A DNA stretch of 53,803 bases from a virus (lineage: Duplodnaviria; Heunggongvirae; Uroviricota; Caudoviricetes). The position numbers and the translations under genes were made by a program. The DNA lies in IMG/VR virus record IMGVR_UViG_3300012943_000028, positions 304,642 to 358,444 of that record. One strand, written 5' to 3'. The notes under the pieces are model-generated. The model worked only from the letters and a program-made list of their open reading frames with translations, was not told the DNA's origin and searched no databases. Positions 25,210 to 26,167 of this stretch are shown here, piece after piece; position 1 is the first letter of the stretch, and each line of letters begins with the position of its first letter.

Positions 25210-25599
25210 TCAGGCGGCCACCAGCCGCTTTTCACGCTGCTTGCCAGCCTCGATCTTCGAATAGCCACGCTCCTGAAGAAGGTTGTATGCGTCGTTCTTC
25301 AGGCGGTTGTGGGCGTAGAAGGCCTCATGCGCAGGCTTCAGCGCCGCATACCATGCGTTGCTGTATGGCTCCTCCTTTGAAACAAGGCGGAACGCATCTC
25401 GCTTAGCGATGGCGGCCTCACGAATCTTTTTGATGGTTCCAAAGTAGCGCTCCTTCCATTGCGCCTTGTACTCTAGATATTGCTCTCTTGTGGTGAACGT
25501 GAATGTAGGGATCATATAGCACCTCGGTGATGGGTTGTGAGTGATAACGTACGTCTTAGCAGTCGGCGGTTTCTTCTTGAACATGCTGAATGGCCACAT
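25210..25599 (-). CDS. hypothetical phage protein
   Basis: AAGGAG RBS before MWPFSMF. Confidence 0.7.
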   Translation of the reverse strand: MWPFSMFKKKPPTAKTYVITHNPSPRCYMIPTFTFTTREQYLEYKAQWKERYFGTIKKIREAAIAKRDAFRLVSKEEPYSNAWYAALKPAHEAFYAHNRLKNDAYNLLQERGYSKIEAGKQREKRLVAA

Positions 25600-26167
25600 G
25601 GCTTTCTCCTTTATACTTCTTGCCAGCCTGAATAAGTCGAGAGCGCTTGATCTTGTAGCTCTCGGAATCCCGTCCACCGAACATCTCGGCGTTTGCGTTG
25701 ATCTCCGCCCAGGCGGTAAAGTAGAGGATCGGCGCAAATGGGCTTTTCCAGAGGCGCAGCAGATCGTCACCACGGAGACAGTGGAAGTCCATGTCTCGCG
25801 CAATGAGCGCCTTTGTAAAGCCATCGTCAGGGAAGATATTGGAGAACTGCCGAGCGCTCGCTTCCGCATGTCCGGGAAAGCGACGCTTGCCATCAGGGCC
25901 GATGGTCAGGCAGAGGTGCTTGCCACAATCATGGTAGATGTGGTAGCGTTCGAGGGTTGATGGAGGAGGAAGGCTGTGCTTCAGCTGCTTGTACAGCTCC
26001 TGAAGCTCCCTGCTCTCATGAGTGCCTGCCTCGAGCTCAGCGATGAGCTGCTTGTACTGCTCGTGCACAGCTTGACCGTGCTGAAGCATGTTGAGGCCAG
26101 GAGCCTGCTCACATGAGGACATCGCCTCATGAAGCTCTTCAATAGTGTTTGAAAGAACCTACGTCAT
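25556..26167 (-). CDS. HD-domain protein with in-frame amber codon at position 3
   Basis: AAGGAG RBS, ATG ACG TAG GTT in frame with the 25556..26122 ORF; HG...YHDCGK motif. Confidence 0.8.

Follow-up and report, generated by a model that had tools for sequence, protein, structure and literature searches.

Start-proximal stop codons matched to phage-encoded suppressor tRNAs in two putative tRNA-end enzyme genes of jumbo phages

The DNA analyzed here (the window) is a stretch of 53,803 nucleotides (nt) forming the last 53.8 kb of the complete 358,444-bp record, with direct terminal repeats, of a jumbo phage belonging to the Caudoviricetes (IMG/VR record IMGVR_UViG_3300012943_000028). Its minus strand carries a gene encoding a predicted HD-type phosphohydrolase (25556-26167), the third codon of which is TAG, and, at the head of the same operon, a gene encoding a protein resembling peptidyl-tRNA hydrolase 2 (Pth2-like; 26776-27106), which also begins with an early TAG. 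The UAG at codon 3 of the HD gene is very probably read by the phage's own tRNA(CUA), which would make synthesis of the full-length HD protein conditional on that tRNA. Deliberate readthrough had been proposed in an initial annotation of this DNA, and it is now favored by the conservation of the N-terminal segment, by the recurrence of early stops in related phages, by two tRNA(CUA) genes located 2.6 kb upstream of the HD gene, and by relatives in which TGA is found together with tRNA(UCA).

The HD gene comprises 203 codons including the UAG and ends with TAA at 25558-25556; its stop-free translation is 203 amino acids (aa) long. Read on the minus strand, its start region consists of the Shine-Dalgarno (SD) sequence AAGGAG (26179-26174), the TGA of the upstream gene (26171-26169), a single base, and the ATG at 26167-26165, located 6 nt downstream of the SD sequence and followed by ACG, TAG (26161-26159), GTT, and CTT. 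This frame is shared with the open reading frame (ORF) listed from the ATG at 26122 (26122-26120), whose methionine is codon 16 and lies 15 codons 3' of the first ATG. Sequence and translation thus agree with the earlier description of an in-frame TAG at codon 3, 15 codons upstream of the listed methionine of the HD ORF. The Pth2-like gene (109 codons) begins with ATG AAG TAG GTT C at 27106-27094 (TAG at 27100-27098), about 940 nt upstream of the start of the HD gene, and the common start ATG A(A/C)G TAG GTT C ascribed to both amber genes is indeed present at 26167 and 27106. No in-frame ATG, GTG, or TTG occurs anywhere in the 106 codons that follow the TAG of the Pth2-like gene.

Because the N-terminal segment of the HD protein is conserved and structured, and because relatives lacking the stop begin at the equivalent ATG, the ATG at 26167 is the real start of the HD gene, and the UAG at codon 3 must be read through. 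Two PHROG profiles reach upstream of Met16, phrog_14850 from residue 8 (E 4e-55) and phrog_26054 from residue 6. The homologs of phages BF and GAP32 and of loci L011, L015, and L016, which have no stop at this place, begin with M-x-x at the equivalent position and align through residues 4-15. Compared with locus L010, a relative 92% identical to the window, codons 4-16 show three synonymous and two conservative changes. In the AlphaFold model of the HD protein (pLDDT 92.6), residues 9-18 form, with high confidence, the first helix, which spans Met16 and includes residues lying between the TAG and Met16, and structural alignments of this model to solved proteins start at residue 6.

The initial annotation had also considered a shorter, suppressor-independent form translated from the ATG at 26122, and this form is unsupported. 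Met16 is an internal conserved residue in relatives with and without the stop alike, and a start at this position would, according to the model, remove about 7 of the 10 residues of helix 9-18. The sole SD-like element of the Met16 ATG is GAGG, which lies only 2 nt away and is paired in a predicted hairpin. This 7-bp hairpin (CAUGAGG/CCUCAUG; 26105-26135, minus strand), which holds the AUG of Met16 in its loop, is weaker or absent in relatives and may follow simply from the encoded residues. No special mRNA structure was detected at the site, the fold of a 101-nt segment giving z = -0.27 and the Rfam search giving no cis-element.

Relatives found by tblastn are jumbo phages, and the DNA of each was read directly. 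In Serratia phage BF, Cronobacter phage GAP32, and Xanthomonas phage XbC2, the Pth2-like gene carries TAG at codon 4 and the HD gene at codon 47, and in Ralstonia phage RsoM2USA the respective positions are codons 3 and 4. Salmonella phage Arash and Acinetobacter phage ME3 have TAG at codon 3 of the Pth2-like gene and no stop in the HD gene, the start of which overlaps the stop of the Pth2-like gene. Xanthomonas phages XacN1 and Xoo-sp13 possess a fused HD-Pth2 gene with TAG at codons 3 and 4 of the fusion, respectively, and Tenacibaculum phage pT24 possesses a fused Pth2-HD gene with TAG at codon 3 of the fusion. Seven metagenomic contigs (53-92% identity) share the early-stop design. The earlier judgment that the TAG is unlikely to be a sequencing error is borne out by L010, which reads ATG ACG TAG GTA, and by dozens of distant relatives with an equivalent early stop.

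Scanning IMG/VR yielded 70 loci, 59 of them non-redundant, which were classed by an automatic rule recognizing an early stop behind a short ATG mini-ORF. Conservation of the stop in homologs, which had been singled out for checking, is seen in 37 of the 59 non-redundant loci for the HD gene (35 TAG and 2 TGA; codons 2-13, mode 3); of the 42 loci in which the Pth2-like gene was found, 30 show an early stop in that gene, and at least one of the two genes is gated in 47 of 59, all of these automatic figures being undercounts in which L048, L070, and L077 are misclassed and to which L027 and L029, with an internal TAG near codon 54, are lost. In some lineages, the in-frame TAG of the HD gene lies away from the start, at codon 47 (L001-L003) or at about codon 54 (L027 and L029). 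It then falls within the loop that follows the second long helix, and its position in L027 and L029 is directly after Pro-Pro.

Public annotations of these genes are affected accordingly. In BF (L001), GAP32 (L002), and XbC2 (L003), the HD gene is broken at the TAG of codon 47 and appears as two or three 'hypothetical proteins', and the Pth2-like gene is unannotated in BF, the pEa_SNUABM phages, and the fHe-Yen9 phages. The family phrog_26054, with its 46 positions, appears to have been built from the first HD fragment. Some metagenome gene callers translated TAG as glutamine, which placed a spurious Q at the stop of HD homologs.

Suppressor tRNA genes are present in the fetched flanks of most IMG/VR loci, and the type of early stop corresponds to the anticodon encoded in the same locus: TAG with CUA in 31 cases, TGA with UCA in 2, and TGA with CUA in none (Fisher test treating related loci as independent, p = 0.002). 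The two TGA lineages, L040 and L076, are unrelated to each other, and L076 combines two tRNA(UCA) genes with TGA in both gated genes. An apparent mismatch in L069 (TAG gate, 'tca' tRNA) was set aside, the tRNA call being unreliable, with an atypical anticodon loop.

The distribution of gates follows the arrangement of translation units. An HD gene whose start abuts or overlaps a gated Pth2-like gene has its own early stop in 2 of 10 cases, compared with 14 of 16 when it is separated from the Pth2-like gene by at least 98 nt, usually by a middle gene as in the window (Fisher test under the same assumption of independent loci, p = 0.001). In all 8 cases with a separate HD gene ahead of the Pth2-like gene, both carry a gate. 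Fusions of the two are gated at the fusion start in 4 of 6 cases by the automatic rule, L070 and L077 having been read by eye. Such a distribution would be expected if selection favored a gate on every cistron that is initiated on its own.

The nucleotide 3' of the stop is a purine in 65 of 67 gating stops versus 26 of 59 ordinary TAG terminators of this genome, a bias to which the general A-richness of 5' coding ends could contribute in part. In classical amber suppression work, a 3' purine, especially A, favors suppression. The TAG-GTT signature put forward earlier holds only for some lineages: ATG ACG TAG GTT recurs in L063, L067, and L080, but most relatives have AAC, AAT, ATT, or ATA after the stop, and GTT as a conserved readthrough context was therefore discarded as not general among relatives.

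The phage genome encodes 56 tRNA genes and a tmRNA-like call; 45 of the tRNA genes are located in the window, in two arrays, and the two tRNA(CUA) genes stand apart from both. The first (28906-28980, minus strand), predicted by ARAGORN and scoring 67.6 bits against the Rfam tRNA model, has U1-A72 and A73, and the second (28813-28890, minus strand; ARAGORN; 55.9 bits) has G1-C72 and G73; the CCA end is encoded in both. Relatives with two suppressor tRNAs often combine one A73 with one G73 (L010, L013), L012 having U73 and G73 and L011 two A73, and, as in the window, their acceptor stems often differ. These sequence features suggest that the two suppressor tRNAs have different charging identities. 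Attempts to predict the inserted residue were not successful. Similarity to other tRNAs indicated no clear donor, the best values being 72-75% identity to phage Arg, Val, and Asn tRNAs, and glutamine, as read from homologs P0010 and P0043, was rejected: these proteins fit their DNA only with TAG=Q, which reflects the choice of the gene caller and no CAG codon.

As regards the gated proteins, the HD-domain label given earlier holds by motif and fold, although Pfam gives no match. In 24 homologs, H30, H79-D80, H100, and D125 are invariant, and H35, D127, and H129 are nearly so. The best solved match of the model is to residues 250-448 of a 'tRNA processing enzyme' (3wfr; Z 14.3, root mean square deviation 2.8 A over 159 residues), whereas other HD proteins (PhnZ, PgpH, PPX/GppA, and YfbR) reach Z 9-10.4, about 4 Z units lower (VIA-align). 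We take the entries 3wfo-3wfs to be a class II tRNA nucleotidyltransferase with tRNA. PHROG matches of the HD protein are to families of unknown function only. Its motifs and all-helical modeled fold point to an HD-type phosphohydrolase. The model of the neighboring gated protein (pLDDT 95.6) matches 1wn2, 3erj, 2zv3, 1rlk, 1q7s, and 1xty in Foldseek (template modeling score 0.6-0.77, E 2e-5 to 4e-4), and a profile of 40 Pth2-like homologs finds Pth2 in the PDB with E 4e-4, which indicates a predicted Pth2 fold. Fusion of the two genes in either order suggests a joint role, and from these fusions, the Pth2 fold, and the likeness to the HD half of tRNA nucleotidyltransferase, we infer that the two gated proteins may form a module acting on tRNA 3' ends.

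Three other explanations of the early TAG have to be weighed, and each has some support. The sequence ATG ACG TAG may be a two-codon upstream mini-ORF of the start-stop or minigene type, which would only regulate or couple translation, the HD protein being initiated at Met16 without readthrough. An SD sequence followed by ATG, one codon, and a stop is the form of lambda bar minigenes and of bacterial 'start-stop' sites, an in-frame ATG exists 13 codons 3' of the HD stop, and in L013 a bare ATG TAG precedes the Pth2-like gene. We nevertheless regard such a leader as improbable: codons 4-15 are conserved as protein and belong to the fold, relatives without the stop use the upstream ATG as their start, Met16 lacks an SD sequence at a suitable distance and lies in the loop of the predicted hairpin, and for the Pth2-like sister gene there is no alternative start at all. 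Moreover, a pure leader would not need a stop type matched to the anticodon of a neighboring tRNA.

Genome-wide reassignment of TAG, as in a phage of the code 15 type, would agree with the suppressor tRNAs encoded by the phage and with the public gene callers that translated the HD genes of some relatives with TAG=Q, but it is very improbable given how TAG is used here. TAG ends 59 of 441 crude gene calls (about 13%) and 21 of 150 long ORFs. Where a TAG is flanked by coding signal on either side, it marks an ordinary gene boundary followed by an SD-ATG; TAG is still a normal terminator in this genome, and there is no code change. Total long-ORF length under each code is uninformative for TAG recoding. 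Two genome-wide scans of the kind proposed in the initial annotation, for an SD-ATG followed by 1-12 codons, TAG, and a long coding frame, recovered both genes and no third one, although a weakly coding gene could escape such crude scans. Even less credible is that the TAG represents a nonsense mutation or an assembly error in a gene being lost, to which the suppressor tRNAs would be unrelated. In its favor, the stop is missing from several HD homologs, and the gene is handled as a set of fragments in public annotations. Against decay or error, dozens of metagenomic lineages, as well as phages of Enterobacteria, Xanthomonas, Ralstonia, Acinetobacter, and Tenacibaculum, have a stop of this kind where these two genes begin, and the rest of the ORF is intact in all of them, with invariant catalytic motifs.

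Readthrough of codon 3 by the phage tRNA(CUA) itself meets several counterarguments. Both the readthrough and its efficiency are deduced from sequence. About a fifth to a third of HD homologs have no early stop, which means that the gate on the HD gene is dispensable in some lineages; most of these stop-less genes are joined to a gated Pth2-like gene by coupling or fusion, and L051, L071, L074, and L075 show neither. The Fisher statistics presuppose independent loci, and the A-richness mentioned above bears on the purine bias. The enzymatic roles are derived from fold, motifs, and gene fusions, Pfam recognizing neither the HD nor the Pth2-like protein in any family at E <= 0.1 and its PTH2 model giving no match. 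Finally, a gate serving as a sensor needs a varying input, and this purpose is itself deduced.

According to the readthrough model, the HD gene would be translated from the ATG at 26167, one or both tRNA(CUA) species decoding the UAG at codon 3. The complete enzyme of 203 aa would be made only when the suppressor tRNA out-competes release factor 1 (RF1), and a dipeptide would be released otherwise; the Pth2-like gene at the head of the operon would be gated likewise. A start-proximal position of the stop may have been selected, since no more than a di- or tripeptide is lost on failure. As known from work on minigenes, very short peptidyl-tRNAs are slow substrates for release factors, and such slow release would favor the suppressor tRNA. 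The gate could make production of the module depend on how well the phage tRNA supply functions or on the balance of tRNA and RF1. A broader proposal, which we advance tentatively and hold to be possible, though with less than even confidence, is that the early stops act as the sensor of a natural translational AND-gate or homeostat. In the module, composed of the Pth2-like and the Cca-like HD protein, every cistron with its own initiation would be translated only in proportion to how active a dedicated sentinel suppressor tRNA is against RF1, and the phage could in this way gauge its own imported tRNA pool or host termination and tune rescue or the processing of tRNA ends to it.

Between the two gated genes lies a middle gene (26169-26780, minus strand) encoding a Cys-rich protein of 203 aa with a CxxCxC...CxxC stretch, for which Pfam, PHROG, and fold searches gave no family or fold lead. 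The operon order is thus the gated Pth2-like gene, the middle gene, and the gated HD gene with its own strong SD sequence (26174-26179, minus strand). The ATG of the middle gene overlaps the TGA of the Pth2-like gene (ATGA), and its translation is probably coupled through this overlap to that of the gated gene. Relatives have a gene-sized gap of 600-700 nt where the middle gene sits, with the same upstream C-terminal motif in two of them.

The sequence TATAAATA at 27162-27169 (minus strand), 56 nt upstream of the Pth2-like ATG, is a candidate promoter of the Pth2-like/middle/HD operon, identified by its match to the T4-type late-promoter consensus only. Three copies occur in the window (6273-6280, 14751-14758, and 27162-27169, all on the minus, i.e., coding, strand) against 0.15 expected, and all 11 sites found genome-wide are located on the minus strand, mostly 30-80 nt upstream of an SD-start, which makes TATAAATA a candidate late-promoter motif of the phage. 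A promoter/terminator scan of 25000-29300 found no sigma-70 promoter or terminator on the minus strand. The sequence ATGNNNTAGGTT occurs three times in the window against 0.14 expected, a number reached in 1 of 100 shuffles. Its third copy (48537-48548, minus strand) is located between tRNA genes, upstream of tRNA-Ala(GGC) and with no ORF behind it, and is probably due to chance. Compared by megablast with GenBank phages, the region gave no match.

Other genes for translation-related functions were found in this genome. Just upstream of the window (about 302.6-303.0 kb of the genome; L093:1438-1857, minus strand), a gene encodes a protein of 139 aa with an RF-1 domain and a GGQ motif, which by sequence looks like an ArfB-type ribosome-rescue or peptidyl-tRNA hydrolase factor. 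A separate gene at about 33 kb of the genome (L092:736-1866) encodes a PolyA_pol-type enzyme of 376 aa, and the tmRNA-like call mentioned above is located at 14953-15296 in the window. Together with the Pth2-like gene, they give the phage a considerable set of genes for translation rescue and tRNA maintenance. The ORF at 27766-28449 (minus strand), between the suppressor tRNAs and the gated operon, shows a signal-peptide-like N-terminus and a HELGH motif; it matched nothing in Pfam or PHROG, and its product is possibly a secreted zinc metalloprotease.

The early stops described here share features with several known systems and differ from each of them. Reassignment of TAG to glutamine ('code 15') has reportedly been found in crAss-like, Lak, and related phages. 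As in those phages, a phage tRNA(CUA) would read in-frame UAG in phage genes and make their expression conditional on the tRNA. Unlike in code 15 phages, TAG remains a terminator here (about 13%), two genes only are involved, the targets are putative tRNA-end enzymes, and there is one gate per independently initiated cistron; in addition, the stop lies at codons 2-13, whereas in code 15 phages stops are scattered through late structural genes. Examples of stop-codon recoding in phages with their own suppressor tRNAs are given in PMC10607447 and PMC12386605.

The gene for release factor 2, prfB, likewise belongs to the translation apparatus and contains an early in-frame stop, and synthesis of its product depends on competition at that stop. 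In contrast to the genes described here, prfB relies on a +1 frameshift with an internal SD sequence and the slippery CUU U, and its product acts on its own stop; in the gated genes, the frame is unchanged directly after the TAG, and a dedicated tRNA would read the stop. Lambda bar minigenes consist of an SD sequence, AUG, one sense codon, and a stop. The arrangement in the HD gene (AAGGAG, 6 nt, ATG ACG TAG) is similar and, if unsuppressed, would yield dipeptidyl-tRNA or a dipeptide, and the neighboring gated gene encodes a protein with the predicted fold of the enzymes that remove such products; unlike in a minigene, a conserved ORF of 200 codons continues in frame behind the HD stop. With class II tRNA nucleotidyltransferase, the HD protein shares the HD-bearing C-terminal half, its best structural match, but it is a stand-alone protein of 203 aa without the N-terminal polymerase-beta-type head, the PolyA_pol domain being encoded by a separate gene. 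The HD domain of E. coli Cca has phosphatase and 2',3'-cyclic phosphodiesterase activity.

The closest parallel in control logic is an engineered one. PMC7969014 describes suppressor-tRNA feed-forward gates in which an amber codon in the target and a separate suppressor tRNA provide AND-type control without leaky expression; that system is synthetic, whereas the phage gate occurs naturally, has been conserved in distant lineages of phages, and concerns particular enzymes. Authors of the XacN1 paper (PMC5852040) noted two CUA suppressors and could identify no target gene, the RsoM2USA paper (PMC8504454) only speculates on its suppressor tRNAs, and a jumbo-phage survey (PMC7824862) notes Pth2 and not the stop. 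A literature search combining Pth2/peptidyl-tRNA hydrolase, suppressor tRNA, and phage found no relevant description, and neither AND-gate control logic nor such a role for 'orphan' phage suppressor tRNAs was found in the searchable literature.

These findings bear on both annotation and biology. Standard gene callers miss a gated gene, truncate it, or split it, and the early stops explain systematic annotation errors, namely Pth2-like genes left without annotation, split HD genes, and a PHROG family that apparently derives from a fragment of 46 aa. The compact natural rule seen here, with one gate per translation unit and a stop type matched to the tRNA, is also relevant to synthetic biology. 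For years, annotations of jumbo phages that otherwise use the standard code, including GAP32, BF, XacN1, RsoM2USA, ME3, and pT24, have listed suppressor tRNAs, and these 'orphan' tRNAs appear to have as their target a stop close to the start of one or two genes for tRNA-end enzymes. The long-standing puzzle of the suppressor tRNAs thus becomes testable in cultured phages.

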